Source of the DNA: Nanobdella aerobiophila
GTDB taxonomy: Archaea > Nanobdellota > Nanobdellia > Nanobdellales > Nanobdellaceae
Direction of reading: 5' to 3'
NCBI RefSeq assembly: GCF_023169545.1
Contig: NZ_AP019769.1
Span: 90,001-122,000 of the forward strand
Length of the DNA stretch: 32,000 bases
Made by a program: the position numbers and the translations under genes. This document shows positions 1-23,893 of this stretch, in pieces. The first letter of the stretch is position 1. Each line of letters begins with the position of its first letter. The notes below the pieces were generated by a model. That model saw only the letters and a program-made list of their open reading frames with translations, ran no database searches and was not told the origin of the DNA.

Positions 1-1
1 T

Positions 2-718
2 ATATGGATTATTTGTAAATTGCTCAAAATTTTGTGCACAAGTATTTATAAAATTATTATTTAAAGCATTAGCGCAATCTACGAAGGAACATTGAGAAAA
101 TTCTCCAGATTGTGAAAATTGAACGCCTTCATTATATAAATAAAATGCAGGATTATCGGATACTGTTTGATTAGCGCTATAAGGATATATATATTCTGAA
201 TTATTATTATAAACGGTTAAATATATACCAGTCACGTATACAGGATATTCATAATTATAATTACCAGCTTCTATATTATTACACGAACCTAAAACACCAG
301 CATAATAATTTGTTGAAATATTGGTTTCTATATTGTAAGGATAATAATATTGTAATTTTTCTAAATCATATATACTATTATATATATTTGTTGCTATACC
401 CTCTTCTGTTAAATTACTATAATAATTTAAAGCAGCCTGGCATGATTGTGGAGCACCGCAGGCTTCTGGATATGCCGCCCAATATTCTTTTCCCCACGAA
501 TTTAACCCCGCTATATAAGATTGTGTGTACGCTTGTTGTGTAATTAAAGTATTTATATAACCTAGAAAATAATCTGTTAGTGTTACTGAAGAAGTGAATC
601 TTATAAATATTTCATTTTGTTTGGAACTTAATGATATAGATACAAAAGATAGTATTATAATTACAGTTATAAAAGCTATAAATAATAACACATATATAAA
701 TTCTATTTGATTTCTCAT
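2..718 (-). CDS. Pilin-like/secreted surface protein, N-terminal 239 aa (gene runs off the left edge)
   Basis: Not in the ORF track because it is open-ended. I translated the minus strand by hand from the ATG at 718-716: MRNQIEFIYVLLFIAFITVIIILSFVSI... It stays open to position 2. The ATG lies 2 nt after the stop of the upstream gene (721). The N-terminus is M-R-x-Q plus a hydrophobic helix, like other operon members. The mature part is Y/N/S/C-rich (..AAYPEACGAPQSCQAALNYY..). Confidence 0.6.
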   Translation of the reverse strand, partial: MRNQIEFIYVLLFIAFITVIIILSFVSISLSSKQNEIFIRFTSSVTLTDYFLGYINTLITQQAYTQSYIAGLNSWGKEYWAAYPEACGAPQSCQAALNYYSNLTEEGIATNIYNSIYDLEKLQYYYPYNIETNISTNYYAGVLGSCNNIEAGNYNYEYPVYVTGIYLTVYNNNSEYIYPYSANQTVSDNPAFYLYNEGVQFSQSGEFSQCSFVDCANALNNNFINTCAQNFEQFTNNPY

Positions 719-720
719 TA

Positions 721-1926
721 TTATATCTTAGTATGTAAATATATAAGTGTTAATATTGATAATGTAACGATAACTCCATGAATTACACCTAAACTTAGTG
801 CAAGATTTGGTAAGCTAAATATTGGTAATAAGAAAGAATTCATTCCTGGAGCAATACCAAATATTTCATTTTCTAATAATTCGCCAGATACCAATTGGAA
901 TATTAATAAAATACCTAAAGTTATTCCTATAGATTTTTTCAATATATTAGTATTTTTTCTATTAAAAAAATAATGTATACCTAGAAAGAAAAATATAAAT
1001 GATATAATTATTCTTGTATGTAAGAGATACATTAGATAGCTATCATAAAATAAATATAAAACGCCAAAAAATATCTGTAAATTATATAAAAATAATAGTA
1101 TAATGCTATAAAATGATACAAATTTATTTTTTAATTTTTTATATATTAAATAAAATATTATATACTCATATATTGATATAAAAATCATTGATAAAGATAT
1201 ATATTTATAATATGGGTCATTTATATTTGGATGTTTTATATAAAATAATGATAAAATAATTGAATATATTAGCTGTATAAATATTATAATTTGAGTTGCA
1301 TATATAATTATTTTTTTATAATTATTTATTTTATTTAATTTTGATAAATCTATACCATTGTTTTTATTTAGATAATTATATAAAAATATAGGTATTAATG
1401 TTATTAATATTAAAAATTCAAATAAATACTCTGCTATATCTGTCTTATAAAATAAATAAGCTATATTTATAACTATTTGTGGTAATATAACATCAACATC
1501 AGTTCCAATTACATTTATTACAGTATTTATAAATAATAGGATAATAAAATAAGATAATAAGAATATATAAATTATTAATTGTTTTTTTGATATCTTTAGA
1601 TTATTTATTATTAATGATTGTCCAATAAAATACGCTAATAGATAAAAGAAAATATATAAATAAAATAATTCTGCTATAAAATTATGGAATGTATTTATTG
1701 AAAAAATTTCTAAAGGAAATAATAGATATATAATTTTATAATTATTATAAGTTGTTTTTGTATACTTTAGTAATAATAAAAGTATTGGTATATAAATTAT
1801 ACCAAATATAATATTAAATATGTTTATACCAAATAATATATAATTTTTATTCCATATCTTAATAAAAGAAAATGATAATAATATTATTAGATAATAAAAA
1901 ATAAATTTTTTATTATTGTCTACCAT
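721..1926 (-). CDS. Polytopic integral membrane protein (about 11-12 predicted TM helices), function unknown
   Basis: 401-aa ORF with an ATG start that overlaps the upstream gene by 7 nt. Almost entirely I/L/F/Y hydrophobic segments separated by short K/N loops. It has no cysteine and no motif I recognise. Confidence 0.6.
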   Translation of the reverse strand: MVDNNKKFIFYYLIILLSFSFIKIWNKNYILFGINIFNIIFGIIYIPILLLLLKYTKTTYNNYKIIYLLFPLEIFSINTFHNFIAELFYLYIFFYLLAYFIGQSLIINNLKISKKQLIIYIFLLSYFIILLFINTVINVIGTDVDVILPQIVINIAYLFYKTDIAEYLFEFLILITLIPIFLYNYLNKNNGIDLSKLNKINNYKKIIIYATQIIIFIQLIYSIILSLFYIKHPNINDPYYKYISLSMIFISIYEYIIFYLIYKKLKNKFVSFYSIILLFLYNLQIFFGVLYLFYDSYLMYLLHTRIIISFIFFFLGIHYFFNRKNTNILKKSIGITLGILLIFQLVSGELLENEIFGIAPGMNSFLLPIFSLPNLALSLGVIHGVIVTLSILTLIYLHTKI

Positions 1927-3488
1927 GTATCTAGCACTCCAACCAGATATCCGCCCAAGTTTAGTTTAGGAATTGGCAAATAAAAATAATATGTATATAA
2001 ATTTTGGTTTTTTGGTATTGGATATCCTAATGATATGCTATTTCCTTGCCCATTATATAAATATGCATTTAATTCATATACATTACCATTGCTTGTTGTA
2101 CAGAATACTCTTGGCATTGCGATTCCATTAGATCCAGGATGTGGATCCCAATATGCTGCAGATATAATTATATATGGATTATTTGGATCTCTATTAATTA
2201 TTGCCCATTTTGTTATATTAAATTCATATAATCCTGCGCTATTCTCATTTTGATTTATTTGATATACTAAAGGACATTGTTTTCCAACTATTATACCACT
2301 TACATTTTCTATATTTTGAAATACTCCTACAGGACATGTTAAGATGCCTCCATTTGTTGTAGATACTGTACAATATGGTGCTGCAGCTAAAAATATATAA
2401 TCGGGCTGTCCGGTTGAATTTAAATAAGATATATATAATCTTATAACTTCATGCCAAGGGTAATCTATATATACATCCTGACAAGATGGCGGTATATATA
2501 CTTTTCCTCTATAAAATGAACCGACTATCGAAGAACCAGAATTTATTAGACCAAGATCCTGCGCTAGTTGCGTTATATCTGTTGCAGTTTTATATATTGG
2601 TGGGTTTGGATAATAATATCCTTCGCCACTATATGCTCCGCCTACAACAATATATTGTCCATAAAAGAAAGATGGTAATGTATAGTTTGGTGCTACTGGA
2701 ACCATCCAACCATCATCAAGATCTTGAAATAATTCCCAATTACCATTCTGGCAAAATACAGATGCGTTTGTAAAATCCTCTCCAGGAAATAAGGTTGATA
2801 ATGATGTACAGAATCCACTAATTTCAGCTTCAGAGGTACAAAAATATGGGCCATATAATCCTCCCAAGCCCCATGAACCACAAGAATTATCTTCATGAAA
2901 TGGTGCAGTTGCATTTACCCAACCAGCACCATGTATATTTTCATATTCTGCTCCTTGATAAGCATATGATACGGAATATTCAGGAGAATATACAGTTTCA
3001 GTATAATCATTAATATAACTAGTATTGTAATTCCATTGATACCATTGAACTCCATTTGTATTATTTGGTGGATTTATTTCACAAGAGTCCCAATCATATA
3101 TATTTCCAGTAACTAAAAACATTTGAACGATCCATCCTGTTATAGATGGTAAATAATATATTGTTAAATTCCAGTTATTACCATATATACTATCGAAATA
3201 ATTATATAGATCCTGAGTTATATTTGTACATGTGTTATCATTTATACAATATTCATTATTTTCTGATGTAGATAAATAAGATAATAAAAATGAGTATGAT
3301 TGATTTACGCTATCATTATTAATATATGATAATAAATCTACACTATTTTGAATAGTCAATGAATATTGATTTTCTGGTATATATTTATTTGTTATATTAT
3401 TATATGTTATTATAAAATATAAAATAAAAGATAAAACTATTATTCCAGTTATAACTATAATTATTATATAATTTACTTGGCTTTTCAT
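1920..3488 (-). CDS. Large secreted or N-terminally anchored Cys-rich surface protein, orphan
   Basis: 522 aa. The N-terminus MKSQVNYIIIIVITGIIVLSFILYF is M-K-x-Q plus a hydrophobic helix. It forms an ATGA overlap with the upstream gene at 3485-3488. The mature part is rich in N/Y/G/S/C with many N-x-S/T sequons. I counted only about a dozen K+R in 522 aa. No recognisable domain. Confidence 0.65.
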   Translation of the reverse strand: MKSQVNYIIIIVITGIIVLSFILYFIITYNNITNKYIPENQYSLTIQNSVDLLSYINNDSVNQSYSFLLSYLSTSENNEYCINDNTCTNITQDLYNYFDSIYGNNWNLTIYYLPSITGWIVQMFLVTGNIYDWDSCEINPPNNTNGVQWYQWNYNTSYINDYTETVYSPEYSVSYAYQGAEYENIHGAGWVNATAPFHEDNSCGSWGLGGLYGPYFCTSEAEISGFCTSLSTLFPGEDFTNASVFCQNGNWELFQDLDDGWMVPVAPNYTLPSFFYGQYIVVGGAYSGEGYYYPNPPIYKTATDITQLAQDLGLINSGSSIVGSFYRGKVYIPPSCQDVYIDYPWHEVIRLYISYLNSTGQPDYIFLAAAPYCTVSTTNGGILTCPVGVFQNIENVSGIIVGKQCPLVYQINQNENSAGLYEFNITKWAIINRDPNNPYIIISAAYWDPHPGSNGIAMPRVFCTTSNGNVYELNAYLYNGQGNSISLGYPIPKNQNLYTYYFYLPIPKLNLGGYLVGVLDTW

Positions 3489-4342
3489 TTTATATAATAT
3501 AATATTATTATTAATAAGCCTATAATTATTATAATTACCGATAATATTGGTAATATATTATACTCATTATTATTATACTCCGTTTTAGTCAAATTTTCTT
3601 CATTATTTAAATATATATTATTTATAGAACTATTAGTCATTATCTGACTTGTCTGGTTATTATATATACATGTAAATACTCCATAACAATTTACTTCTAT
3701 ATTGTTTGGAGGTGGGCATTCTTTTAAAAATTCATTATATAATTTTTGTAAAGAATAATTATATGGGCATCTATACCAATCTCCATTAAAACTTTCATTT
3801 TCTGGGCAATAACCACATGATTGCTCTATATATAATGCAGAATATATATTATTATATTCCGTAGAATTATAATTTCCAGGTATATATGGAGGGTTAAAAC
3901 ATGGATATGGAACTTCTGAACAGGATTGAACAATCCATGGTGTATCTGAACAGCTTACTATATTATTACATGCAGATAATATAGGATATACATCTTGATA
4001 TGAGCTTTCTGGAACTAATGCTAAAGGATCTATCTCTGTTCCATTAGGATAAATACATAAGAACTGAGTTATTGTTGTATTATCTATGGTTAAATTTTGT
4101 ATTATGGAACTTAGATTATAGTGATAGCAGAAATTATATTTTTCAGGAACCTGTCCATAATAATAATTAAATGCATTAAATGTATTACCATCTACTATAC
4201 AATATTCTCCAGTTGAGTTCGCATAAAATACTCCACCTCCATATTGGCAAAATACTGCTACAGGATTTTTTAATGAATATATATTATATACAAATAATAA
4301 TGAAATTAAAAAAATTATAATATTACGATATATATGTGACAT
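3485..4342 (-). CDS. Cys-rich surface protein with DUF333-like N-terminal module and C-terminal TM anchor
   Basis: 285 aa with a Sec-type signal (MSHIYRNIIIFLISLLFVYNIYS). The next segment, KNPVAVFCQYGGGVFYANSTGEYCIVDGNTFNAFNYYYG, resembles the DUF333 pattern (NPA..yC...GG....G..C.l.dG...W.y..G). It has 14 Cys, about 11 N-x-S/T sequons and a C-terminal hydrophobic anchor (ILPILSVIIIIIGLLIIILYYIK). Confidence 0.55.
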   Translation of the reverse strand: MSHIYRNIIIFLISLLFVYNIYSLKNPVAVFCQYGGGVFYANSTGEYCIVDGNTFNAFNYYYGQVPEKYNFCYHYNLSSIIQNLTIDNTTITQFLCIYPNGTEIDPLALVPESSYQDVYPILSACNNIVSCSDTPWIVQSCSEVPYPCFNPPYIPGNYNSTEYNNIYSALYIEQSCGYCPENESFNGDWYRCPYNYSLQKLYNEFLKECPPPNNIEVNCYGVFTCIYNNQTSQIMTNSSINNIYLNNEENLTKTEYNNNEYNILPILSVIIIIIGLLIIILYYIK

Positions 4343-5831
4343 TGTTTATAGAAATAATATAATAAGGAAGGCTTTGGCCGTATGGTGTTGAATTATAAGG
4401 AACATATATATATCCATTATTCATCCAATATACTCCTCCACAGTTATATCCACTTCCAAGTACTTTTTGTACATAATAATTACAAAAATTTTGGTTTAAA
4501 AATAACTGACTGCACGATTGTATAGATATCATATTATTTGGTATAAGAAGTGGTGTTGTATCATAATAATTTGTTGTATTATATACTACTATGATGCATG
4601 CGGATTGTTGCCCCCATTCGTTTTGTATTATCCAACAACCAGGCTGATTATATTCTTCTTGGCATATATTTGAATTATCATTAAATCCTACTAATAATGT
4701 TGCATGTCCCGTTGCTTCTAGATAATAACTAGTATCTTGATTGGATAGACCACCTAAAAATCCACTTATACTTAATGGACCATAACATAGTAAATCTTGT
4801 TTTATTTGTTGGGTGCTTAAATCTCCTGATGGTGGCAGGGCTGCTAATTGTCCTCCTGGTCCTATAGCCTCTTCACTATCTAAAAATCCTGAAGCAAGAT
4901 ATTGTTCAGAATCTGGTACATAAATATTATTATTTGGTATACTATATGACTGTCCGCATACATCTCCTGGATAATTAGAAATATTTGTACTGCAGTCTGC
5001 CAGTTCTTGATAATATGTATTATAATTATTATCTGTTCCTATACCATATTCTTCTGAAAATTGTATTCCTTGATATGGTAATCCACCTAAACAACCCATT
5101 ACATCTTGGCAGTATCCTGGAGAATTTGGATTACCAACATTGCAGTTAACTGCAATTTCTGTTGGTGAAAGATACAAACTTAAATTTGGTAAATTATTAT
5201 ATATCATATAATTTGAGGCAATTGCATATGCAGCGCTCCATGCCCAGCAATCACCGCATGTACCTTGATTTCCAATGGGGGGTAAGTAACTATCTCCATT
5301 TACATCACCCCAGTTCCAAGAAGTTTGTCCTGTATAATTATATAAACAATCATTGCTTGATATTATATTATTTGAATTATTGGAATTAATTATCATATTA
5401 TACGTATTATTATCTATTAAATATTCAGATTCATTATAATTATTTGTTATATATATATGATTATTTGATTTTATAAAGTATATTTCATTTGGATATAATA
5501 AGTAATTTATTTCAGAATTATTATTATATAAGGATATATTATAATTATTAAATGTTATTGAATAATTATTGTTGTTATAATTTAATACTATTGAATTATT
5601 GGCATAATATATTATTACATCATTTGGAACACTTAATCTTATAAAATAGTTGCCTTGAAATGTGGTTATTGTATTTTCCAAATTTTGTATATTTTGGACA
5701 AAATTTTGAAATTCTATATTTTGTTGTGATGTCTTTAAATTATAAATATATATATAATATATACCTATTGCTAGTCCAACTATTACTAATATTATTCCTA
5801 CATTCAATAAATTGATTTGAACTCTCTTCAT
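4323..5831 (-). CDS. Papain-family (peptidase C1) cysteine protease with pilin-like/signal-anchor N-terminus and Asn-rich stalk
   Basis: 502 aa. The active-site block PPIGNQGTCGDCWAWSAAYAI matches the papain Q19..C22GSC25W signature (Q189, C195; the Cys195 codon is at 5247-5249). ATGHATLLVGFND supplies the His (H376) and IIQNEWG supplies the Asn of the N-S-W-G motif (N404). The N-terminus is MKRVQINLLNVGIILVIVGLAIGIYYIY. Residues about 70-160 form an N/Y/I low-complexity region. Confidence 0.8.
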   Translation of the reverse strand: MKRVQINLLNVGIILVIVGLAIGIYYIYIYNLKTSQQNIEFQNFVQNIQNLENTITTFQGNYFIRLSVPNDVIIYYANNSIVLNYNNNNYSITFNNYNISLYNNNSEINYLLYPNEIYFIKSNNHIYITNNYNESEYLIDNNTYNMIINSNNSNNIISSNDCLYNYTGQTSWNWGDVNGDSYLPPIGNQGTCGDCWAWSAAYAIASNYMIYNNLPNLSLYLSPTEIAVNCNVGNPNSPGYCQDVMGCLGGLPYQGIQFSEEYGIGTDNNYNTYYQELADCSTNISNYPGDVCGQSYSIPNNNIYVPDSEQYLASGFLDSEEAIGPGGQLAALPPSGDLSTQQIKQDLLCYGPLSISGFLGGLSNQDTSYYLEATGHATLLVGFNDNSNICQEEYNQPGCWIIQNEWGQQSACIIVVYNTTNYYDTTPLLIPNNMISIQSCSQLFLNQNFCNYYVQKVLGSGYNCGGVYWMNNGYIYVPYNSTPYGQSLPYYIISINNVTYIS

Positions 5832-5867
5832 AAATAGTTTTTTTATTAGTTTTATAATTTATATATT

Positions 5868-6290
5868 TTATGTAGATGAATATATCTCTATTGAGTTTGG
5901 ATTATTTTTATATATTGTTATTTCTATATTTTCTACATTATTATTTAGGTTAGCGTATTTATATAATGTATTATTATATGATATAGTACCTTCTATTATT
6001 ATATTACAACTTGAATTGTATTTTATATATTGATTATATATATAACAGGTTACTTCATTTCCATTAGATGATATATAATTTAGGTATTTTGATATTTGAA
6101 AATTTGTTGTTATACTGGTTCCATTGTTAGCATTACATACTTCTTCAATAGAATTAAATAAATTTTGGCACTGATTTATTTGATTTGATACAAGATAGAT
6201 TTCATTATTCATATAGCTAAATTTTAAATATAAGTACATTGAAATTCCAAATCCAATTACAGTTGCAATAAGCCAGAACCATTTTTCCAT
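5868..6290 (-). CDS. Small N-terminally anchored secreted protein (minor-pilin-like), unknown function
   Basis: 140 aa. It has an N-terminal hydrophobic helix (MEKWFWLIATVIGFGISMYLYL), then an N/I/Y/S-rich domain with 4 Cys. It sits in line with the pilin-like series. Confidence 0.55.
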   Translation of the reverse strand: MEKWFWLIATVIGFGISMYLYLKFSYMNNEIYLVSNQINQCQNLFNSIEEVCNANNGTSITTNFQISKYLNYISSNGNEVTCYIYNQYIKYNSSCNIIIEGTISYNNTLYKYANLNNNVENIEITIYKNNPNSIEIYSST

Positions 6291-6322
6291 TTTTATAAAA
6301 AATATTTATCTATATATAAAAA

Positions 6323-6730
6323 TTATTGTAATGATAAATATACATAATTTATATTTGAATTAATTAATATATAGTCACCTTGTTTTATATAATAATTACA
6401 ATTTTGAATCTGTACATTAGGATCTATACTTAATACATTATCTATTAATTGAGAACATGAAAAAGAATTTGTTCCATTATAATATACTAAATAACATAAT
6501 CCATTTTCTTTTTTATTATAACAAGAAATTATATCTAAAGATAATGTGTCTATAGATTGAACATTAGTTTCAACTACCGTGCTTGTACTATTAGGATGCG
6601 GAAGTGCAGTATTTATATAAGATACTAGATTACTTTTTATCATTAAGATTATACCAACGATTACTACTACTGCAATTATTCCTATAATTATTATAAATGT
6701 TAAATTTACGGGCATTTCTTGACCTTTCAT
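6323..6730 (-). CDS. Small pilin-like protein with class III-type signal peptide (MKGQ...)
   Basis: I prefer the second ATG (6730-6728) over the ORF-track start at 6736. It forms an ATGA overlap with the upstream stop (6727-6729) and gives MKGQEMPVNLTFIIIIGIIAVVVIV, a K-G-Q prepilin-like N-terminus. It has 4 Cys and the core motif DIISCYNKKENGLCYLVY, shared with the next gene upstream. Confidence 0.6.
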   Translation of the reverse strand: MKGQEMPVNLTFIIIIGIIAVVVIVGIILMIKSNLVSYINTALPHPNSTSTVVETNVQSIDTLSLDIISCYNKKENGLCYLVYYNGTNSFSCSQLIDNVLSIDPNVQIQNCNYYIKQGDYILINSNINYVYLSLQ

Positions 6731-7206
6731 TGCCATAATATTATATTTGTATTATTATAAATTATAAATATACTTTGATATGGTGTAAAATTTAATTGAT
6801 TATTTTCGTAATGAAATAATAAATTATTTGTATTAAAATTACTATATCTATTTAATATATATAATATATTTGTGGAATTAATGGATAAATTTTCATCAAT
6901 ATATACATCATAACAAACATTAAATAGGTTGTTTGTATTTATATTTTTATTATAGCAACTAATCACTAATCCAGCAATTGCATTTTCTATATAATCTTCT
7001 GTTTGGTTATTAAATTCTATGGTTTGCGTTTCTGGGTAGTATTTTAAACATGATGGAGAAAATGAGTCTGTGGATACTATACTTTCGCAATAATATTGTT
7101 TAGAGTTTAGAAAAAATTTATCATATATTATATATAAAAATATACTTATAGAGATTATTGCTACAATAATAATAAATGCCTGATCTATAGCAATATCATT
7201 TTTCAT
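6727..7206 (-). CDS. Small pilin-like/N-terminally anchored protein, paralog of 6323-6730
   Basis: 159 aa with the N-terminus MKNDIAIDQAFIIIVAIISISIFLYII. It forms an ATGA overlap with the upstream gene (7203-7206). It has 4 Cys and the motif LVISCYNKNINTNNLFNVCYDVY, parallel to ISCYNK..CYLVY in the neighbouring gene. Confidence 0.6.
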   Translation of the reverse strand: MKNDIAIDQAFIIIVAIISISIFLYIIYDKFFLNSKQYYCESIVSTDSFSPSCLKYYPETQTIEFNNQTEDYIENAIAGLVISCYNKNINTNNLFNVCYDVYIDENLSINSTNILYILNRYSNFNTNNLLFHYENNQLNFTPYQSIFIIYNNTNIILWQ

Positions 7207-7481
7207 ATATAACTTATATTTCCTTCATATATATATATTATTCTATTTCCTTCTGGAATTAGTAAATTATTTATTGTACAGTTTTGAGTTAAATATACTT
7301 TTATTTCTATTGTTTTATAATAGCTTTGGTTATATAAATTATTTAGTTCTTGGCAATTTATAGATCTTATATTATTATTTGTATCATTTACTTTATATAT
7401 ATAATAAAAAGAAAAACTAGCTGCTGCAATAATTAAGATAAAAGATATTAATAGTTCATATTGAATATTTTGAGCTTTCAT
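7203..7481 (-). CDS. Small pilin-like protein
   Basis: 92 aa with the N-terminus MKAQNIQYELLISFILIIAAASFSFYYIY: M-K-A-Q, an acidic residue, then a hydrophobic helix, as in class III signal peptides. It forms an ATGA overlap with the platform gene (7478-7481). Confidence 0.6.
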   Translation of the reverse strand: MKAQNIQYELLISFILIIAAASFSFYYIYKVNDTNNNIRSINCQELNNLYNQSYYKTIEIKVYLTQNCTINNLLIPEGNRIIYIYEGNISYI

Positions 7482-9445
7482 ATTGATATATTTGTTGGTA
7501 AATAAGGCCCGAAAACAGAAAAAATTACTATAATACCAATTATTGAAAATACAGTATATATTATAGTTCCTAATAATAAATTTTTTCCTATATAATAATC
7601 TATCATTGTATTATCAAATCCATATTTTATTCCAGCAGTCATATATGATGTTATAATTATAAATTCTATGAAAAATATACCAATTATAGCTTCAAAATAT
7701 GTTGGTGGTATTAAATTATATAAATTAAAAGTTTGTACTATTAATTGTTCTATCCCTGCAGAACCTGATATACCAATGGATTGATCAATTAGTTGGAAGA
7801 AGTATGCTAAAGCAAATAACATAGATATTATCCCATTATTAAAGACGGTTACTAGTGCAGATATAAATGGTATTAAATTTTTTGATGTAACATCTAACAT
7901 ACTTATTATTTCATTTAGAATCTTTCTTACATTATTTTTTATATTTATTACATTTTCTAGGTTATAGGAAATATTATATGTTATTTTTGATAATATCTCT
8001 GGACCTTTTGATATGGAATATATTATTAGTTGTAAACTTTCTCTTACTAGTTTTGATGGATAATAATTTATAGATCCATTATTAATATTGAATATAGAAT
8101 TTATTAAGTCGAAACCTTTTCTCAAATTATATATTGTTATCTTTAGGAAATTCTCCATTACCCCACTAGACTTTATTATCTTATAATTTTGATATGTTTT
8201 TTGTATTACAATTTCCATTGGATAACCATCTTCTAATAATGAGGCAAATTCATAAGTTACTATTGGAAATTCATCTTCTATTTCTTCTATTTGTTGTATT
8301 TTTTTTACTTTCTGATATGAATTAAGATAGAAATATGATCCTATACCAAGACCCAATCCTAAAGGTATTGTTAAAACAGTTAATATATTGTATAGGGCTC
8401 TATCCTGATATATTATTGATAAATATTGGCTATCTCCTGGTGGTATATATAATAATTGAATTGCTAAATTTATTATATGATAGAATCCTATAATGGATAT
8501 AGAAAGGAATATTAATGATATAAAGATTATTGGTAAATATTTACCATTTATCTTTATAGTTCCATTTCTTGGTAGGTCTTTTGATAATGATAAATCAGGT
8601 GTAGAAAAAGCAAAAGGGCTTTTAGACAATAAATTTTGGGCTATTAAGAATACTATTACTGGAAGAATAATTATATAACTAAATGCTATAAAGTAAAAAC
8701 TTACTGTATTTAATATAAATATTGATAATAATGGTAGCATAATTAATGTTATCATTGGCATCATTACTAAAAATGATACAATTGCAGTTGTTGGCTCTTT
8801 TAAATTTTCTACATATTCTTCTGATCTTTGTAAGGATTTTTTTAATGTCCATTCTAATATCCTATCAACTAATTTATTTATATCATCTATAGAACTTTTA
8901 TAGTTTATATTAATTAAATGGGTGATTGCATATACAAATTCAGGATTTATATAATACCATCTATATTGATAATATTCCAAAGCATCTTCTATTTTATTAA
9001 ATCTGTTTGTTTCTAAGTCATATATTATTTTTTTAAAATCATCTGCTAATATCCCATTCATATAATATGCTACATATTGTATTGCTTTTTCTAAATTTGG
9101 ATTTCTTTTAATATATAATGATAAATACAATAAGATCCAGACAGATTCAGAAGTTGCTTTAATCTTTACTATCTGAGTATAAAATATTGGATAATATATA
9201 AGATAAAAATTTAATATTAATAATGATATAAATAAAGAAAATGCGAATTGAAATGATATGATACTAAATATAAAATAAGTTATTATAGAAATTATAAATA
9301 AAGATATATTTGATGATAATATATTATTAGGATTTGTATTTAGCCTATTTAACCATAAATGAAATTTATAAAAATCATATATCTTCTTTGGAGCCTTTAT
9401 TTTTATTATTATAAATTTATTATAAAAATTTTCAAAAAAAGACAT
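7478..9445 (-). CDS. Putative type IV filament platform protein (FlaJ/TadC/PilC-like, two T2SSF-type repeats)
   Basis: 655 aa. The architecture is two TM helices, a soluble helical domain of about 130 aa (..IKRNPNLEKAIQYVAYYMNGILADDFKKIIYDLETNRFNKIEDALEYY..) and about four TM helices. A second soluble helical domain follows (..EDEFPIVTYEFASLLEDGYPMEIVIQKTY...KGFDLINSIF..), then three TM helices. That duplicated layout is the hallmark of T2SSF-domain platform proteins. The gene sits 2 nt downstream of a pilin-like gene. The call rests on architecture, not on measured sequence identity. Confidence 0.55.
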   Translation of the reverse strand: MSFFENFYNKFIIIKIKAPKKIYDFYKFHLWLNRLNTNPNNILSSNISLFIISIITYFIFSIISFQFAFSLFISLLILNFYLIYYPIFYTQIVKIKATSESVWILLYLSLYIKRNPNLEKAIQYVAYYMNGILADDFKKIIYDLETNRFNKIEDALEYYQYRWYYINPEFVYAITHLININYKSSIDDINKLVDRILEWTLKKSLQRSEEYVENLKEPTTAIVSFLVMMPMITLIMLPLLSIFILNTVSFYFIAFSYIIILPVIVFLIAQNLLSKSPFAFSTPDLSLSKDLPRNGTIKINGKYLPIIFISLIFLSISIIGFYHIINLAIQLLYIPPGDSQYLSIIYQDRALYNILTVLTIPLGLGLGIGSYFYLNSYQKVKKIQQIEEIEDEFPIVTYEFASLLEDGYPMEIVIQKTYQNYKIIKSSGVMENFLKITIYNLRKGFDLINSIFNINNGSINYYPSKLVRESLQLIIYSISKGPEILSKITYNISYNLENVINIKNNVRKILNEIISMLDVTSKNLIPFISALVTVFNNGIISMLFALAYFFQLIDQSIGISGSAGIEQLIVQTFNLYNLIPPTYFEAIIGIFFIEFIIITSYMTAGIKYGFDNTMIDYYIGKNLLLGTIIYTVFSIIGIIVIFSVFGPYLPTNISI

Positions 9446-9447
9446 AC

Positions 9448-10197
9448 TTATACGCTATTCAATTCATTATACTGGAAATCTAATAATGCTTGGCATAAAG
9501 GTGTCTGATCTTGATTTATATTTATTGATGGGCATATTCCATTTACATATATTTCTCCATTTTGTACAATTATGCTTAGATTTCCTGCGCAATAATTTTG
9601 ATTATAGTAATTTACTACATTTATTAAAGCTCCGAACACCTGGTTAGTTATCCAGGTTGGTATATTTCCATTACATGTAGATGGACCTGGATATAATATT
9701 GTGGAAGGTTGAGATATATATAATTCTACATTTCCATTTGAGACATTTATTTCTGTAGATGATGCATATTGACCAAATACATATTTTGTTGCTTGATTTG
9801 CATTATAATCTAGTGTATTTATATAATATTGACATTCTATATACATACAATCTAGAGGAGTTATGGAATATCCTTGATAACTACATGATTGACCATTATT
9901 AGAATTTCCATATAACTGATTTACTATTGTACATGGTACAGAATTTTCACATAAGTAATATCCAGGACTATTTTCAGTGTATCCATTTCCTATACTTACA
10001 TATTGGCTACAATAATCTATAGGATTAGAACATGCACTAGTGCATGTTGATACAGCCTGTTGAATTTCAGTATTTGATATAGTTCCAATTTTTGATGCTT
10101 GTTGAGTAAATAATTTTATTACTATTACTGCTACCACTAACATAATTAATATTACGAATATAAGTTCCACTGCCATGTCAATACCTCTTTTTTTCAT
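9448..10197 (-). CDS. Cys-rich pilin-like protein with class III (prepilin-type) signal peptide
   Basis: The ORF-track start at 10209 is a TTG; the first ATG is at 10197-10195. That gives MKKRGIDMAVELIFVILIMLVVAVIVIKLF: a basic stretch, G, an acidic residue, then a long hydrophobic helix. This compares well with archaeal pilins of the KKGQIAMELGIL type. The mature domain has more than 10 Cys and many sequons. Confidence 0.65.
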   Translation of the reverse strand: MKKRGIDMAVELIFVILIMLVVAVIVIKLFTQQASKIGTISNTEIQQAVSTCTSACSNPIDYCSQYVSIGNGYTENSPGYYLCENSVPCTIVNQLYGNSNNGQSCSYQGYSITPLDCMYIECQYYINTLDYNANQATKYVFGQYASSTEINVSNGNVELYISQPSTILYPGPSTCNGNIPTWITNQVFGALINVVNYYNQNYCAGNLSIIVQNGEIYVNGICPSININQDQTPLCQALLDFQYNELNSV

Positions 10198-10220: not shown

Positions 10221-10631
10221 TTATAAATATTTAATTATTATGTATAGATCTTTATCTTCTTTTAATAAATTTATGATATCCCTTTTAATATCTATAGAAC
10301 TTTTATTTGAATATATTGCTAATGTTCTATCATCTATAAAATTACTTTTCCTTATAATAATACTGTTTTCTGATTTAAAACTTAAATTTTTTGACCCATA
10401 TGCAATAATTTTATCAATTAAATTATCTACTTTTATTATTATCTTTATCTTTCCTTCTGATAATAAATATTCTTTCAAATCTTCCGGAATTTCACTTGCC
10501 GAAAAATTCGCATTTATACCTATAATGCAATCACCTCTCTCTGTTAAAAAATCGTCTTTTGTAACCTCTAGAGTGGATTTGTGGGTTGCCTTTATTAATC
10601 TATTTCCTTTTGCTTTTATTTCAAATTTCAT
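10221..10631 (-). CDS. Small conserved archaeal protein, DUF371-like (tentative)
   Basis: 136 aa, soluble. The N-terminal block KATHKSTLEVTKDDFLTERGDCIIGINA matches my recollection of the DUF371 signature (..H.tT.E.Tk...LT.rGDCIigv.a). Its start overlaps the ATP-grasp gene stop by 11 nt. Confidence 0.45.
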   Translation of the reverse strand: MKFEIKAKGNRLIKATHKSTLEVTKDDFLTERGDCIIGINANFSASEIPEDLKEYLLSEGKIKIIIKVDNLIDKIIAYGSKNLSFKSENSIIIRKSNFIDDRTLAIYSNKSSIDIKRDIINLLKEDKDLYIIIKYL

Positions 10632-11460
10632 TTAAGTAATCTAAAATTCCTTTAACTAGATTTTTATTTAAATATTTTTCAAATCCTTCAAACTGGAATA
10701 TATTATGTATGTCAATTAAATAATAAGTATTTTCTTTTAATAATAGATCAAAAGCAAATATCTGTAGATCCATTTTTTCAGAAATTTTATATGATATTTC
10801 TTCTATTTCTTTATCAATTTTATATTCTTTTCCTCTACCGCCCTGGCTTATATTTGCTTTATAAGATTCGTTATTTATTCTTTGCATGGCACCGAAAGGT
10901 TTTCCTATGAAAATTACTCTTATGTCTTTTTCATAAGGTATATATTCTTGAAAAATTAGATGTTTTATATCCCTTTTATTTTCCAAATATTCGTCTAAAA
11001 AGTTATATAATTCTTCTTCATTATTTATCTTAAATACGAATTCACCCCTATGAATGAATTGATGTTTTACCATTATTGGAAAACTTAGCTTTTCGAGGAT
11101 GAATCTTATGTTTTTCACTGAATATATTTTATAAAATTTCGGTATCTTTATATATTTTCTTAATTTATCATAAAAAAATGTTTTACTTGCTATTTGGTTA
11201 TTTATATGTAGTTTATTTATGACATTTTTTCCATTATCATTTAAATAATTTGCTAAAATATTGGAATCATATGTGAATGTCATTCCAAGATAGAAATAAA
11301 AATTATCATATTCTAATATCTTTGTATTTTCATAAGGATATACTAGGTATTTATATGCCTCTACTATATCTATATTATTGTAACCACTTATTTCATCGTA
11401 AAATCTTTTTATTCTATAATCTTCTAAATTTTGTCTTATAAGAATCGCTATTTTTTTCAT
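10621..11460 (-). CDS. ATP-grasp ligase, RimK/LysX-like
   Basis: 279 aa. Typical RimK-type blocks are present: FPIMVKHQFIHRGEFVFKI, LIFQEYIPYEKDIRVIFIGKPFGAMQRI and SYKANISQGGRGKEY. The substrate cannot be assigned. Confidence 0.6.
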   Translation of the reverse strand: MKKIAILIRQNLEDYRIKRFYDEISGYNNIDIVEAYKYLVYPYENTKILEYDNFYFYLGMTFTYDSNILANYLNDNGKNVINKLHINNQIASKTFFYDKLRKYIKIPKFYKIYSVKNIRFILEKLSFPIMVKHQFIHRGEFVFKINNEEELYNFLDEYLENKRDIKHLIFQEYIPYEKDIRVIFIGKPFGAMQRINNESYKANISQGGRGKEYKIDKEIEEISYKISEKMDLQIFAFDLLLKENTYYLIDIHNIFQFEGFEKYLNKNLVKGILDYLNEI

Positions 11461-11511: not shown

Positions 11512-11814
11512 ATGGCTTCTTCTAAGAATAGTCGAAAGTCTCATAAAAAATCCGTTCCTAAAAAAACAAGAGATCTAAATGAAGTAGATATATCAAAACA
11601 TTATTTGGTACCAAAACACGAAAAGATAGATGAGCAAGAGAAGCAAGAATTATTAAGGAATTATAATATAAAGCTATCTGATTTACCAAGAATAAAAATT
11701 TCTGATCCAGCTATAAGAAAATTAGAAGTTAAACCAGGGGATGTTATAAAGATTATTAGAGATTCACCTACTGCCGGAGAGAGTATATATTATAGGGTTG
11801 TGATTGAGGATTAA
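11512..11814 (+). CDS. rpoH: DNA-directed RNA polymerase subunit H (Rpo5)
   Basis: HYLVPKHEKIDEQEKQELLRNYNIKLSDLPRIKISDPAIRKLEVKPGDVIKIIRDSPTAGESIYYRVV matches the RpoH consensus. It heads the rpoB/rpoA operon as in other archaea. It carries a K/S/R-rich N-terminal extension of about 29 aa. Confidence 0.9.
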   Translation: MASSKNSRKSHKKSVPKKTRDLNEVDISKHYLVPKHEKIDEQEKQELLRNYNIKLSDLPRIKISDPAIRKLEVKPGDVIKIIRDSPTAGESIYYRVVIED

Positions 11815-11836
11815 ACTTATAAAAACGTATTATAAA

Positions 11837-13354
11837 ATGAATAATGTGGATAAAAATAAAGACAAGTATATACTTTTATATAAATACCTTGATGAAAACC
11901 AATTGCTGAACATACATCTCAGATCCTTCGAGTATTTCGCGGATGTAGAAATGACAGAGATAGGGAAAAAGTTGGGCGTATTCTCTCCAAGGATATTGCC
12001 TTCTGGTTTAAGAGATCTACAATTTAAGATAGATAAGATATGGTTGAGTAAGGCAGATTTTATGGAAAAAGAAGGAGTTCCAAGGTTAATATATCCAAAT
12101 GAAGCATTAATTAGGAATATAACCTATTCTGGAATGGTTTATATGGAATTTTCAGTATTTGAGAATGAATCGTATAAGACTAAATACCAGGTTAGTATTG
12201 GAAGGTTACCAATCATGATAAGATCAAAATATTGTAATACATATGGATTATCTGAAGAAGAATTAATAAAATTAGGTGAAGATCCTACAGACAGAGGTGG
12301 ATATTTTATAATAAATGGTAGTGAAAAAGTTATAATATTATCAGAAGAATTATCTACAAATAGATTTTATGTCCAAGAAGCTAATAGTCCAGTAAAATAT
12401 AGTGGATATTTACTATCGGAAGCTGTTACATTACAATCTTCACATAGGATGGAATTAATGAAAGATGGAATATTATATATCTCATTTGAAAGATATAAAA
12501 GAATACCATTAATTCCATTAATAAAGGCTTTAGGATTATCAAAAGATTCGGAAATTGCACAATTGATAAATGAGGATGACAATTTTGAAGAGACATTTAT
12601 TAATCTATTGGAATATCAAGATATGAATGAAATAGATGATAATATTAGATTCTTAGCAGATAGATTGAGATTAACAGGTAATTTTGATGTAAAAAAAGAG
12701 AAATTATTGGGAATTTTAGATTCAAAATTATTACCTCATGTAGGTACTGAACCAAAAGATAGATTATGGAAGGCATATAATTTAGCTAAGATGGCGAGAA
12801 AAATATTATTATTAGCCCACGGAAAGATAAAAGAGGATATAAAAGATCACTTTTCTAATAAGGTAGTGAGGACTCCTGGAGAATTATTAAGAGAAATGTT
12901 CCTTATAACATTAAAAACAATAATGAATGATGCGATGTACCAATATGAGAGGTTAATCAGAAGGGGAAGAGTGCCTCCATATAATTCTATATTTAGATCA
13001 AAGATATTTAGTGAAAGATTTGAGTCTGCTATGGGTACTGGAAAATGGACTAGGAATAGAAATGGTATAGCTCAATCATTAGATAGAACAAATAAAATTG
13101 CTGTTTTATCCCATCTTACTAGAGTATTTTCGTCCATATCCGAAGAAGCAGAATTATTAGAAGCTAGAATGGTTCATGGTACTCATTGGGGAAGATTAGA
13201 TTTAATTGAAACTCCAGAGGGTCATGAAACAGGATTAAGAAAGAATTTATCTTTATTGTCTAAGATTAGTTTTGAAGAAGTAGATAGAGATAATTTAATA
13301 AAGAGTTTGGAAAGTATAGGATTAAGGCCAATAGTTAAAAATATTTCTAAGTAA
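11837..13354 (+). CDS. rpoB2: DNA-directed RNA polymerase subunit B'' (N-terminal part of split Rpo2)
   Basis: The ORF-track start at 11804 is a TTG that overlaps rpoH; the first ATG, at 11837, gives MNNVDKNKDKYILLYKYL... Conserved blocks include GRLPIMIRSKYC, DRGGYFIINGSEKVII and HGTHWGRLDLIETPEG. The gene ends where split-B archaea divide the subunit. Confidence 0.92.
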   Translation: MNNVDKNKDKYILLYKYLDENQLLNIHLRSFEYFADVEMTEIGKKLGVFSPRILPSGLRDLQFKIDKIWLSKADFMEKEGVPRLIYPNEALIRNITYSGMVYMEFSVFENESYKTKYQVSIGRLPIMIRSKYCNTYGLSEEELIKLGEDPTDRGGYFIINGSEKVIILSEELSTNRFYVQEANSPVKYSGYLLSEAVTLQSSHRMELMKDGILYISFERYKRIPLIPLIKALGLSKDSEIAQLINEDDNFEETFINLLEYQDMNEIDDNIRFLADRLRLTGNFDVKKEKLLGILDSKLLPHVGTEPKDRLWKAYNLAKMARKILLLAHGKIKEDIKDHFSNKVVRTPGELLREMFLITLKTIMNDAMYQYERLIRRGRVPPYNSIFRSKIFSERFESAMGTGKWTRNRNGIAQSLDRTNKIAVLSHLTRVFSSISEEAELLEARMVHGTHWGRLDLIETPEGHETGLRKNLSLLSKISFEEVDRDNLIKSLESIGLRPIVKNISK

Positions 13355-13364
13355 GTAAAATAAA

Positions 13365-15167
13365 ATGTCTTACGAGGTTTATCTAGATAATATATTTATA
13401 GGATACGTGGAAGATTATGAAGATTTTATCAGAGATTTTAAAGAAAAAAGGAGATCAGGTATTATACCAGAATTTGTAAATATATCTTTAGATGAAGATA
13501 GGAAAATAGTAGAGATAAACACAAGAAAAGGCAGGATTTTAAGACCTTTAATTGTAGTAAAAGATAAAAAGCCATTATTAACTAAAGAAGATATTGAAAA
13601 ATTATCTAGGGGAGAGCTGTCATGGTCAGATTTGGAAAAGATGGGTGTTATAGAATGGGTAGATCCCGAAGAAGAAGAAAATTTAAAGGTAGCGTTATAT
13701 CCAGAGGATATAAAAGATGATACGACACATTTGGAAGTTTCTTCATTAATAATATTTGGTATAGCTACATCATTAAATCCTTTCTCTAATAAAAATCAGT
13801 CTGCAAGATTAAATAGAGGGGTTAGACCGTTAAAGCAATCTCATGCTATATATTCTTTAAATTACCATAATAGATTTGATACAGATATATCTATATTATA
13901 TTATCCTCAGCAACCAATTGTAAGAACATTTTCTAATAAGATATTTCAAAAAGAGAATTTAATTGGTCAAAATGTAGTAGTAGCAGTTATGACTCAAGAT
14001 GGATATAATATAGAAGATGCATTAATAATGAGTAAAAGTTCTATAGAAAGAGGAATATTTAGATCCGTATACTTTAGATCATATGAAGTAGAAAAATTGA
14101 GATACCCCGGTGGTCTGCAGGATGAAATAGGTATTCCGGATCCATCTATAGAACTATATAGGGGGAAAGATAAATATAAATATTTGGAAGAAGATGGTAT
14201 TGTATCATTGGAATCTTATGTTTCTGCTGATGATGTTATTGTTGGTAGAACTTCTCCACCAAGGTTTTTAGGTCTGAGCTCTGAAAGTATAACTACTGGT
14301 TTAAGGAAGAAAGACTCTTCTTTAACGATGGGCGGTGGAGAAGAAGGATATGTAGATTCGGTTGTAGTTACAGAATCTCCTGATGGTAATACTTTAATAA
14401 AAATAAGAGTTAGAGATCTAAGAATACCAGAACTTGGTGATAAATTTACTGTAAGACATGGTCAAAAGGGCGTAATCGGAATGATTGTAGAGGGAACGGA
14501 TGTACCATGGTCATCTTCTGGTATTAGACCTGATATAATATTTTCTCCAGCTGGTATTCCATCTAGGGAAACTTTTGGACTATTACTAGAATTATTAGGT
14601 GGTAAGGTAGGATCATTAAATGGCAGATATGTAGACGGTACTCCTTGGTATGGTGAAGATGAAGAAGAATTAAGGAAGGAGTTATTATCTTTAGGATTTA
14701 AAGATGATGGTACTGAAACCTTATATAATCCAATTACTGGAGATGAATTTAAAGCGAAAATATTTATAGGTAGCTTATATTACCTTAGATTAAAATATAT
14801 GGCTAAAAATAAATTACAAGCAAGAGCTACAGGTCCAATAACGCTATTGACGAAACAACCAACTGAGGGAAAATCTAAAAAAGGTGGTTTGAGATTTAGT
14901 GAGATGGAAAATGAGGTACTTGCAGCTCATGGTTCTTCTATATTATTAAGAGAAATGTTCTCTTCTGATGATTCTGTAATATTTGTATGTGAATCCTGTG
15001 GTTCGCTAGCTACAGAAGATAATATAAGAAATAGATTATATTGTCCCGTTTGTGGTGAAACTGAAAAAATTTCTAAAGTAAAAGTTTCATATGGTTTTAC
15101 TTTATTATTAAAAGAATTAATTTCTATAGGTATTTGGCCAAGATTAAAGCTTGATTATAAATTCTGA
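13365..15167 (+). CDS. rpoB1: DNA-directed RNA polymerase subunit B' (C-terminal part of split Rpo2)
   Basis: Conserved blocks include YNIEDALIMSKSSIERG, GDKFTVRHGQKGVIG, YYLRLKYMAKNKLQARATGP, GGLRFSEMENEVL and the Zn ribbon CESCGS...CPVCG. It starts 10 nt after rpoB2. Confidence 0.95.
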   Translation: MSYEVYLDNIFIGYVEDYEDFIRDFKEKRRSGIIPEFVNISLDEDRKIVEINTRKGRILRPLIVVKDKKPLLTKEDIEKLSRGELSWSDLEKMGVIEWVDPEEEENLKVALYPEDIKDDTTHLEVSSLIIFGIATSLNPFSNKNQSARLNRGVRPLKQSHAIYSLNYHNRFDTDISILYYPQQPIVRTFSNKIFQKENLIGQNVVVAVMTQDGYNIEDALIMSKSSIERGIFRSVYFRSYEVEKLRYPGGLQDEIGIPDPSIELYRGKDKYKYLEEDGIVSLESYVSADDVIVGRTSPPRFLGLSSESITTGLRKKDSSLTMGGGEEGYVDSVVVTESPDGNTLIKIRVRDLRIPELGDKFTVRHGQKGVIGMIVEGTDVPWSSSGIRPDIIFSPAGIPSRETFGLLLELLGGKVGSLNGRYVDGTPWYGEDEEELRKELLSLGFKDDGTETLYNPITGDEFKAKIFIGSLYYLRLKYMAKNKLQARATGPITLLTKQPTEGKSKKGGLRFSEMENEVLAAHGSSILLREMFSSDDSVIFVCESCGSLATEDNIRNRLYCPVCGETEKISKVKVSYGFTLLLKELISIGIWPRLKLDYKF

Positions 15168-15169
15168 TT

Positions 15170-22994: not shown

Positions 22995-23893
22995 TAAATT
23001 ATTTATTATATTTTTTTGTATTATTGGGCGCAATTATAGCAACTATAATATTATTTTTATGGTTGGAACTTGGATTATCTTGTTCTTATTTTATTAATAA
23101 GGATTTATTTAAGAAATATGAAAATTTGTTTTTATCATCATGGGAGATTACTGGAACTACAATTGTATTTTTAGTTGTACAATTTGAAGCAATAGCTCCT
23201 AATCTGTTAATTCCGGTTGCTTATTCTTTTTATATATTTATATTTTTAATATTATTTTTCTTTATATTTAGGAATATAAATATAGGAATATTTGAAGGAT
23301 TAACATTTAAGAATAAATATAATAAAAGTAGTTTAATAATTTATACAATAGCAACTTTATTTTTAGGAATAATAATGATTACATTGGTAAGTGCAGGTAT
23401 TACTGGTATAGGTATAATAGGATTATCGGGTAATATAATAAATTGGAATATATATATTATATTTAATTATTTTAATTTATTATTATTGATATCTACAATC
23501 TTATCTTCTCTTGGATTTTTAGGATATATATTTGGAATAGACAGTTATAAAAGATATTCTATAATAGGTTATATATTATTTATTATTGATCTAGCCTTAT
23601 TTACTAGATCTATATATGTTTATTACTTAATTATTCCTTTAGTATTATTTATATTAATGTTACTTGTTAAGGTTAGAATATATATACAAAGAATAATATA
23701 TGTATTATCACATTACTTTACTTCCATTATTGTAAGTATAATGATATTTCCTTATCTATTTAAAATTATTAATATACAAAATATAATTACTCAAAGTAAT
23801 ATATTATTATCTGCAGAATTTGTAGTGTCCATATTTATTATAGTTGCAATATTTTCTATATATTTATTTGAGATAAAATCTATATTAGATTAA
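22991..23893 (+). CDS. cydB: Cytochrome bd-type oxidase subunit II (divergent, short)
   Basis: 300 aa with about 8-9 TM helices. It forms an ATGA overlap with the cydA stop (22991-22994). The assignment rests on position and topology; I cannot align its sequence to CydB by eye. Confidence 0.55.
   Translation: MINYLLYFFVLLGAIIATIILFLWLELGLSCSYFINKDLFKKYENLFLSSWEITGTTIVFLVVQFEAIAPNLLIPVAYSFYIFIFLILFFFIFRNINIGIFEGLTFKNKYNKSSLIIYTIATLFLGIIMITLVSAGITGIGIIGLSGNIINWNIYIIFNYFNLLLLISTILSSLGFLGYIFGIDSYKRYSIIGYILFIIDLALFTRSIYVYYLIIPLVLFILMLLVKVRIYIQRIIYVLSHYFTSIIVSIMIFPYLFKIINIQNIITQSNILLSAEFVVSIFIIVAIFSIYLFEIKSILD

Follow-up and report, generated by a model that had tools for sequence, protein, structure and literature searches.

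An operon at one end of a 32,000-nt stretch of the genome of the small parasitic archaeon Nanobdella aerobiophila MJ1 (contig NZ_AP019769.1, positions 90,001 to 122,000; the window, below, is this whole stretch, and positions are counted within it) is read here as half of a split surface-assembly system, similar to type IV filaments (TFF) and specific to Nanobdella and its relatives among the Nanopusillaceae: the half with the platform, the pilins and the cargo. A probability of about 0.55 is assigned to this reading. Within the window the operon shows 11 consecutive minus-strand open reading frames (ORFs), G1 to G11, which run from position 10197 past position 1, and all of its products are hypothetical proteins in the database records consulted. 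The reading is built on a divergent platform protein (G2), a short N-terminal motif common to small and large exported products, a papain-type protease with a pilin-like front end and a gene order that recurs in related genomes.

An earlier description made from the DNA alone (the sequence-only reading) had reported a run of 11 minus-strand ORFs separated by -20 to +36 nt, and both the ORF listing and an independent translation reproduced it. The gaps from G1 to G11 are, in succession, +2, -4, -4, -4, +32, +36, -20, -4, -7 and +2 nt, and the four ATGA start/stop overlaps that it had placed at 7478, 7203, 6727 and 3485 are all present. Its count of at least 11 genes holds for the window; the MJ1 operon as a whole has at least 12. 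G11 is cut by the window edge (<1-718; 410 aa in full), and G12, which starts MKSQFSIIF, begins 1 nt after it, off-window. Most G5 orthologues begin MA[IM]K[SG]Q, so the true start of G5 is probably at 6736 (MAMKGQ), 6 nt further upstream, which would lengthen its overlap with G4 from 4 to 10 nt.

Four versions of the locus were compared: those of MJ1, of its sister strain YN1 (accession AP031373.1) and of two other assemblies from the Nanopusillaceae (loci L066 and L067). The order RimK, DUF371, G1, G2, three to four small genes, protease, G8, G9, G10, G11 is shared with the three other genomes, in which the identity of G2 falls as low as 53%, and in every genome compared the cluster is divergent from the rpoH-rpoB-rpoA operon. 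Because the same order recurs in three other Nanopusillaceae genomes, the operon is taken to be more than a chance arrangement. In YN1 it comprises 15 genes, the last of which is a G10 paralogue followed by a convergent arginase gene. A mobile element or a defence island was considered and rejected, given the conserved chromosomal context and the lack of PADLOC or PHROG matches.

G2 (7478-9445, 655 aa) is a polytopic membrane protein of the divergent TadC/FlaJ (T2SSF) type. Against the Pfam T2SSF model (PF00482) it reaches 12.4 bits (E = 0.16; profile positions 3-124 of 125), short of the cut-off of 25.2. Its relatives are more telling. P0009, a homologue at 34% identity, carries PF00482, and T2SSF is matched by four of 22 G2-family members at E <= 0.01 (best, 2.4e-8). 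A profile of the G2 family was also aligned with nine haloarchaeal membrane proteins, each encoded directly after a secretion ATPase in its own locus, and hhalign returned a probability of 100% (E = 2.3e-41, 557 columns). These haloarchaeal proteins and the DPANN relatives score 20-24 bits on T2SSF, with the match in one half of the protein or the other. Members of the family that adjoin an ATPase in DPANN genomes match G2 by BLAST at E = 1e-53 to 1e-71. Five more distant homologues (26-29% identity) were placed in their loci: two lie directly after a T2SSE ATPase of 745-759 aa (L004 and L062), one is separated from such an ATPase by a single gene (L063), one has an ATPase approximately 9 kb downstream and one stands alone.

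By homology, G2 is a real but divergent TadC/FlaJ-type platform protein. The assignment made in the sequence-only reading was borne out through the family profile, since the match of G2 itself to T2SSF stays below threshold. On the two repeats that it had seen in the protein the signals are mixed: relatives match T2SSF either in the N-terminal half (L004, L015) or in the C-terminal half (L029), and a comparison of the two halves of G2 is in register yet weak (hhalign E = 0.004, probability 8%). The AlphaFold2 (AF2) model of G2 has a predicted local distance difference test (pLDDT) score of 87, is nearly all helical and contains several transmembrane (TM) spans. The family profile found no relative among PDB sequences. 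No other protein of the operon is as well conserved as G2 (73% identity between MJ1 and YN1), a finding that speaks against a decaying remnant, and its cytoplasmic domains, the presumed docking site of an ATPase, are highly conserved.

The second line of evidence is the N-terminal motif. In G3, G5, G7, G9, G11 and G12 a hydrophobic helix comes after an initial M-[KR]-x(1-2)-Q, and the starts MKAQ, MKGQ, MKRVQ, MKSQ and MRNQ are present as had been claimed. An M-[KR]-x-Q start occurs in none of the 20 other genes of the window and is kept in the orthologues across the four genomes: those of G3 start MKSQ, MKNQ or MKGE, and those of G9 start MKSQ, MRAQ or MKNQ. A reading of the leader as K-[AGS]/Q, in which the slash marks the presumed cleavage position, is compatible with G3, G5 and G9. 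Every one of the candidate pilin-like proteins contains a hydrophobic segment.

G1 (9448-10197, 249 aa; approximately MJ1_0115, counting from MJ1_0106 and MJ1_0112) is the best prepilin candidate. It has the leader MKKRG/IDMAVELIF and a hydrophobic helix, followed by a domain with 12 Cys. The corresponding leaders are MKKRA/VDMAVELIF in YN1 (MKKRAVDMAVELIF) and MRKRA/LDMAIQLVF in L067 (MRKRALDMAIQLVF), giving the conserved pattern KR[GA]/[ILV]DMA[VI][EQ]L. Identity between MJ1 and YN1 is 82% over the 40 N-terminal residues of G1 and 55% over the remainder. Pilins usually show such a better-conserved N-terminus. No relative of G1 was found among PDB sequences.

Four smaller products follow the platform gene. 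G3 (7203-7481, 92 aa) starts MKAQNIQYELL and has a helix and two Cys. G4 (6727-7206, 159 aa, MJ1_0112) starts MKNDIAID, has a helix and four Cys, and belongs to a family restricted to Nanopusillaceae. It is a paralogue of G5 (6323-6730, or to 6736 with the upstream start; 135-137 aa), which starts (MA)MKGQEMPVNL and likewise has a helix and four Cys; the two align over a shared SCYNK...CY motif. G6 (5868-6290, 140 aa) is small and N-terminally anchored, starts MEKWFWLI and contains four Cys; it is without a basic leader in MJ1, and its L066 orthologue starts MRNQVEKFLWIG. Paralogy among all of the small proteins was also considered and dropped, as the signal seen with unfiltered BLAST was lost with SEG filtering and composition correction. 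The relationships that survived are those of G4 to G5, of G6 to the N-terminus of the YN1 protease and of the G7 N-terminus to a 141-aa gene of YN1.

Scores against class III and pilin models stayed below cut-off, among the best being E = 1.3 for G1 against Class_IIIsignal and E = 0.054 for G3 against TIGR04205, a class III signal family. G5 matched GspG at E = 0.014, and the N-termini of its orthologues matched Flp1_like at E = 9e-4 to 0.013, below cut-off; some of these orthologues are labelled 'UPF0333 family' by JGI. The AF2 model of G5 (pLDDT 82) shows a 35-residue helix (residues 8-42) and a globular alpha/beta head. In loci of Woesearchaeota and Pacearchaeota, strings of small genes with KK[GA]/ leaders, some of them K[GA]Q, stand directly after a TadC homologue. 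At L063 (12272-17012) and L006 (12153-17586), 10-11 small genes come after the TadC homologue, mostly with class III-type leaders of the KK[GA]/ kind.

It is plausible that the small operon proteins are pilins. The earlier claim of class III signals and pilin-like proteins has in its favour the leaders, the hydrophobic helix, the DPANN KK[GA] loci and the G5 model, and lacks a significant match to a hidden Markov model (HMM) or a fold. Elsewhere in the window, a 537-aa protein encoded on the plus strand (30027-31640) starts MRSISPIIATILIIVITVAIAG and carries a large, N-rich domain at its C-terminus. Against Pilin_N, with a cut-off of 25.2 bits, the N-terminal fragment of this protein reaches 26.2 and the full-length protein 24.0. 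No other archaeal pilin N-terminus near threshold occurs in the window. This protein could be another substrate of type IV filament machinery.

The third line of evidence concerns the large products. G7 (4323-5831, 502 aa) has three parts: a leader (MKRVQ) with its helix, a module of approximately 150 aa and a protease domain. It matches Peptidase_C1 with 63.7 bits (E = 3.3e-17; cut-off 20.7), its closest solved structure is cathepsin C, and QGTCGDCW, GHATLLVG and QNEWG stand at the positions of the catalytic Gln, Cys, His and Asn. G7 is, as predicted from this match and these aligned residues, a papain-family cysteine protease with intact catalytic residues, and the papain-type label given to it earlier was confirmed. 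A protease gene occupies the same operon position in all four genomes. G6 shares 45% identity with the first 141 residues of the YN1 protease (579 aa), and the N-module of G7 exists in YN1 as a free-standing 141-aa gene. In YN1 (L001, 13201-16210) the protease lies behind a G6-like module, and an extra G8-like gene of 172 aa stands beside the free 141-aa gene. Because the G7 protease domain has its own N-module in MJ1 and a G6-like module in YN1, the domain has evidently been exchanged between pilin-like front ends by domain shuffling.

Apart from the protease, no operon protein has a significant match in Pfam, NCBIfam, PHROGs or PADLOC. G8 (3485-4342, 285 aa) combines a Sec-type signal, found within the operon in G8 alone, with an ectodomain containing 14 Cys and a TM anchor at the C-terminus; its TM segments span residues 4-26 and 259-285. 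The label 'DUF333-like' that G8 had received could not be upheld. Neither the full-length protein nor fragments match DUF333 (PF03891) at E <= 10, and a YN1 paralogue gives a partial match of 14.4 bits (14-15) over profile positions 3-21 of 47, where the cut-off is 25. G9 (1920-3488, 522 aa) is an orphan exported protein that starts MKSQVNYI and has a helix, 12 Cys and 13 NxS/T sequons; Pfam, NCBIfam, PHROG and PDB searches found no relative. G11 is likewise an orphan, with a leader (MRNQIEFIY) and helix followed by a Cys-rich exported domain.

G10 (721-1926, 401 aa; 100% identical to MJ1_0106) is an orphan polytopic membrane protein with six relatives among 1.84 billion representatives. Its C-terminal helices carry invariant H303, H318, H383 and H398, together with E349 and E352, and have no conserved Asp. 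The His residues form two pairs, each 15 residues apart, and the protein contains no Cys. This spacing recalls that of di-heme or metal-binding membrane modules. G10 was also examined as the missing GxGD prepilin peptidase, a proposal that found no support because its family has neither a GxGD motif nor a conserved Asp; it may still act in a non-aspartyl manner.

The numbers of Cys residues in the exported proteins are even (G1 12, G3 2, G4 4, G5 4, G6 4, G8 14 and G9 12). The protease G7 has 15, that is 14 plus the catalytic Cys, and the polytopic G2 and G10 have none. These even counts suggest that the exported domains of the operon are stabilized by disulfide bonds. Extracellular disulfides would then be systematic in an organism growing at 65 degrees C and pH 2.5.

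No motif of the GxxxxGK[ST] or GxGD type was found in stop-to-stop segments of at least 60 aa in any of the six frames of the 32-kb window, which confirms the earlier statement that the window holds no P-loop or GxGD protein. The G2 gene itself has no adjacent T2SSE- or FlaI-type ATPase in MJ1, YN1, L066 or L067. The syntenic YN1 operon and its flanks contain neither an ATPase nor a peptidase. An ATPase/peptidase pair just outside the operon was rejected for the YN1 locus, which is flanked upstream by the RNA polymerase operon and on the other side by the convergent arginase gene.

Absence of an ATPase is a trait of the locus, not of the genome. The claim 'no ATPase' is correct for the operon and the window and does not extend to the genome: YN1 encodes a T2SSE ATPase elsewhere, and MJ1 is reported to encode ArlBHIJ (bioRxiv 10.1101/2023.10.27.564410). 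Nanopusillaceae have a second, more divergent TadC paralogue (TadC2, approximately 25-28% identical to G2), whose gene overlaps the end of a T2SSE ATPase gene of 741-747 aa. In YN1 this pair, with an ATPase of 747 aa, lies approximately 330 kb from the operon. Full-length identity of this ATPase to those adjoining the DPANN homologues of G2 is 38-44% (38-42% for the YN1 protein), and one ATPase family appears to serve two platform paralogues, G2 and TadC2. Four FlaJ/TadC homologues have been counted in Nanoarchaeota (Jarett et al. 2018, PMC6142677).

An ATPase clade of halobacterial type has been described that is also present in nanoarchaea and for which cognate pilins had not been identified (Makarova et al. 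2016, PMC4858521). The ATPase of locus L008, used as a query, retrieved mainly haloarchaeal loci, which suggests that the YN1-type ATPase may belong to this clade. Upstream of the ATPase-TadC2 pair, at 8425-9955 of L013 in YN1 and at 6317-7705 of L008, there are three genes on the opposite strand. Two of them, of 119 and 234 aa in YN1, code for proteins that are coiled-coil or Q-rich, and the third for a small N-terminally anchored protein (133 aa and Cys-rich in YN1). A coiled-coil accessory protein has been described for a halobacterial subclade (Makarova 2016, PMC4858521).

The mechanism proposed from these observations assigns G2 the role of a functional TadC/FlaJ-type platform paralogue, on the basis of its homology and strong conservation. 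G1 and G3-G6 would be prepilin-like subunits in which a very short basic leader (MKKRG/ or MK[AGSN]/Q) comes before a hydrophobic helix at the N-terminus. G7, G9, G11 and the off-window G12, which share the pilin-type N-terminus, would act as 'functionalised pilins' that are displayed on the structure or released from it, their exported domains stabilized by disulfide bonds. Energy would be supplied in trans by the single DPANN-type T2SSE ATPase encoded with TadC2, a locus seen in YN1 and inferred for MJ1; ArlI would be the fallback source. The likely role is that of a host-contact fibre or a pseudopilus showing adhesin-like proteins and a protease.

Several results weigh against this proposal. 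The strict archaeal consensus, [KR][GA] and a hydrophobic run, fits G1 alone, and the residue at -1 would be Val in G7 and Asn in G11, neither of which is a known cleavage context. No operon protein reached significance against the class III and pilin models of Pfam and NCBIfam. This null result weighs little, because evident DPANN prepilin-like genes with KKG/ leaders fail too: hardly any of those at L063 and L006 matches a Pfam model for class III signals or pilins, and standard HMMs appear to miss many DPANN pilin-like genes. The structure searches were also negative. Foldseek matched the G5 model to no solved pilin in the PDB, and in that model a low-confidence linker separates the helix from a head that is not packed against it. 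For the G2 model, Foldseek found nothing significant in the PDB, the best relevant match being a PilC model at E = 1.3. A single scan of the genome collection for the ATPase matched YN1, Nanoclepta and several metagenome-assembled genomes and did not match MJ1. No recognizable prepilin peptidase was reported for two nanoarchaea (Makarova 2016, PMC4858521), and these genes have not been linked to a filament.

The same negative results can be turned into a different explanation, in which the platform was exapted and no filament is built. G2 would be a membrane scaffold uncoupled from any ATPase, the small MKxQ proteins would be type II signal anchors with the N-terminus inside, and these and the Cys-rich proteins would build a static complex in the envelope, such as a portion of the attachment organelle's cone or portal. 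This is unlikely, although it accounts for a G2 gene that is unpaired with an ATPase in four of four Nanopusillaceae genomes, for the missing pilin HMM and fold matches, for the unpacked head of the G5 model and for the two nanoarchaea without a recognizable peptidase (PMC4858521); moreover, as yet unassigned repeating units make up the cone of this organelle (PMC11104419). Against a generic anchor, Gln at position 4 is kept across unrelated proteins of the operon, which points to a shared processing or recognition signal. Homologous DPANN loci carry KK[GA]/ prepilin-like genes at the same position, and the presumed ATPase dock of G2 is still highly conserved.

If the proteins are pilin-like after all, the structure need not be a long fibre. 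A pseudopilus like that of a type II secretion system (T2SS), with G1 and G3-G6 forming a short piston on G2 to drive protease and Cys-rich proteins across the S-layer, would suit the T2SS-like logic of one major-like and several minor-like pilin genes beside large exported proteins, the enzyme cargo within the operon and the weak GspG match of G5. This version is rather improbable. The large proteins share the N-terminal signal of the small ones, which makes them look like subunits or anchored cargo, not like free T2SS substrates, which use Sec or Tat signals. A Sec-type signal is confined to G8, and no archaeal T2SS is known to have been described. Barely credible is a coincidental run of unrelated lineage-specific surface genes, in which the spacing reflects a compact genome of 0.67 Mb and the TadC-like gene serves another system. 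Reduced genomes are usually tightly spaced, and paralogy among the small proteins at large went undetected under SEG filtering and composition correction. Chance is countered by the order conserved in four genomes despite G2 identities as low as 53%, by an N-terminal motif that is confined to this operon within the window, by the paralogy of G4 and G5 and by the swapping of pilin-like modules between protease and small genes.

The reading as a split TFF-like system can be taken one step further, to the contact between Nanobdella and its host. Cryo-electron tomography has revealed an attachment organelle of elaborate build, from which a tube or filament enters the host, and a second extracellular appendage; the molecular identity of the tube or filament and of the second appendage was left open (PMC11104419, PMC11420986, bioRxiv 10.64898/2026.06.04.730037). 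The 7-8-nm tube or filament that leads from the attachment organelle to the host and the 15-nm 'rough' second appendage are candidate structures for the operon. The full proposal is that the operon forms one of the host-contact structures of Nanobdella, YN1 and YN4, that its pilin-anchored protease opens the host's S-layer and that the MK-x-Q leaders are processed in a non-canonical manner, maybe by G10. It is speculative and fairly improbable. A non-canonical leader enzyme is invoked because nanoarchaea are reported to be without PibD/FlaK. The operon is unmentioned in a survey of the MJ1 cell surface (bioRxiv 10.1101/2023.10.27.564410).

Upstream of G1 and in the same direction lie a DUF371 gene (10221-10631, minus strand; Pfam E = 1.9e-45) and a gene for a RimK-type ATP-grasp ligase (10621-11460, minus strand; Pfam E = 3.5e-23). 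The two overlap by 11 nt and are 23 nt upstream of G1, an adjacency kept in four of four genomes examined; they could be part of the operon's transcription unit or modify its products. The G+C content of the window is approximately 25%. Housekeeping genes make up the rest of it, among them those for RNA polymerase subunits, ribosomal proteins, FtsZ, NusG and cytochrome bd subunit I. The RNA polymerase genes (11804-18878, plus strand) encode a split B subunit of 516 + 600 aa and a split A subunit, A' of 887 aa and A'' of 362 aa; the genes for A' and A'' overlap by 44 nt.

At 21627-23893 (plus strand), a gene for cytochrome bd oxidase subunit I (Pfam E = 6.5e-86) is followed by an overlapping polytopic ORF of 300 aa with no Pfam match, which is possibly subunit II. 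A tyrosine recombinase gene on the minus strand (23890-24723; Phage_integrase, E = 1e-43) overlaps the end of this downstream ORF. Nanobdella aerobiophila is reported to be without ATP synthase genes, and bd oxidase has been flagged as fast-diversifying in Nanoarchaeota (Jarett 2018, PMC6142677). The only tRNA gene of the window, tRNA-Lys(CTT) (29885-29957, plus strand), starts at the final base of an FKBP-type gene.

Multiple TadC homologues and type IV pilus-like systems in Nanoarchaeota were already known. No description of this operon, of the conserved absence of an ATPase, of the MK-x-Q leaders or of the pilin-fronted protease was found in the literature surveyed. Few Nanobdellota have been cultivated, Nanobdella aerobiophila, YN1 and YN4 among them, and for these the operon offers a concrete, if unproven, list of 12-15 candidate genes for host-contact structures. 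It may also supply the pilins missing for the nanoarchaeal ATPase clade (Makarova et al. 2016, PMC4858521), and it is a clear case of a platform paralogue encoded apart from its presumed ATPase. If the proposal is true, the idea of functionalised type IV filaments extends from nutrient binding to a protease.

By ancestry the operon belongs with the ATPase-TadC loci of DPANN and haloarchaea, which have a long T2SSE ATPase of approximately 745 aa and a platform of the same family as G2; by working principle it resembles the bindosome of Sulfolobus. As in Nanobdella, the loci of Woesearchaeota and Pacearchaeota place the platform gene before a string of small prepilin-like genes. They differ in that the Nanopusillaceae platform gene stands without a neighbouring ATPase in each of the four genomes, the ATPase of the family sitting with TadC2 elsewhere, and in that Nanobdella leaders are shortened to MK-x-Q and the operon includes a protease and large Cys-rich proteins.

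The 11-gene operon for the Epd pilus of Methanococcus maripaludis is likewise a long single operon with several pilin-like genes and at least one platform gene. Substrates of EppA have a KGQ cleavage context with Gln at +1 (UPF0333/PF04021), to which the [KR]-[GAS]-Q start of the Nanobdella proteins is similar. The Epd locus has its own ATPase, unlike the Nanobdella operon. The Nanobdella leader would be only 3-5 residues long in comparison, and its match to PF04021 is not significant. The Epd locus also has its own peptidase (bioRxiv 10.64898/2026.04.22.720090), which the Nanobdella operon does not. A pilin-like N-module fused to a functional C-terminal domain is the layout of operon proteins such as G7. 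Among bacteria, modular type IV pilins such as PilB and PilC of Streptococcus sanguinis are built in this manner, with a pilin N-module. They belong to another domain of life, and the likeness is in layout only, the module grafted in Nanobdella being a papain-type protease.

The sequence-only reading had held that the effector-like cargo is not part of any described pilus operon known to it. This was overstated, as the bindosome proteins of Sulfolobus, with their pilin-type N-termini, are a precedent. The bindosome (Bas) comprises functional, non-pilin proteins that have a pilin-type N-terminus and need a TFF core (bioRxiv 10.64898/2026.04.22.720090). Its cargo consists of the sugar-binding proteins of ABC transporters encoded at distant loci, whereas that of Nanobdella, a protease and Cys-rich orphans, is encoded in one operon with the platform. 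An ATPase is part of the core locus of the bindosome and not of the Nanobdella operon, and the likeness is one of principle, with no sequence homology claimed: in both, proteins with a function of their own would be brought to the cell surface behind the N-terminus of a pilin.

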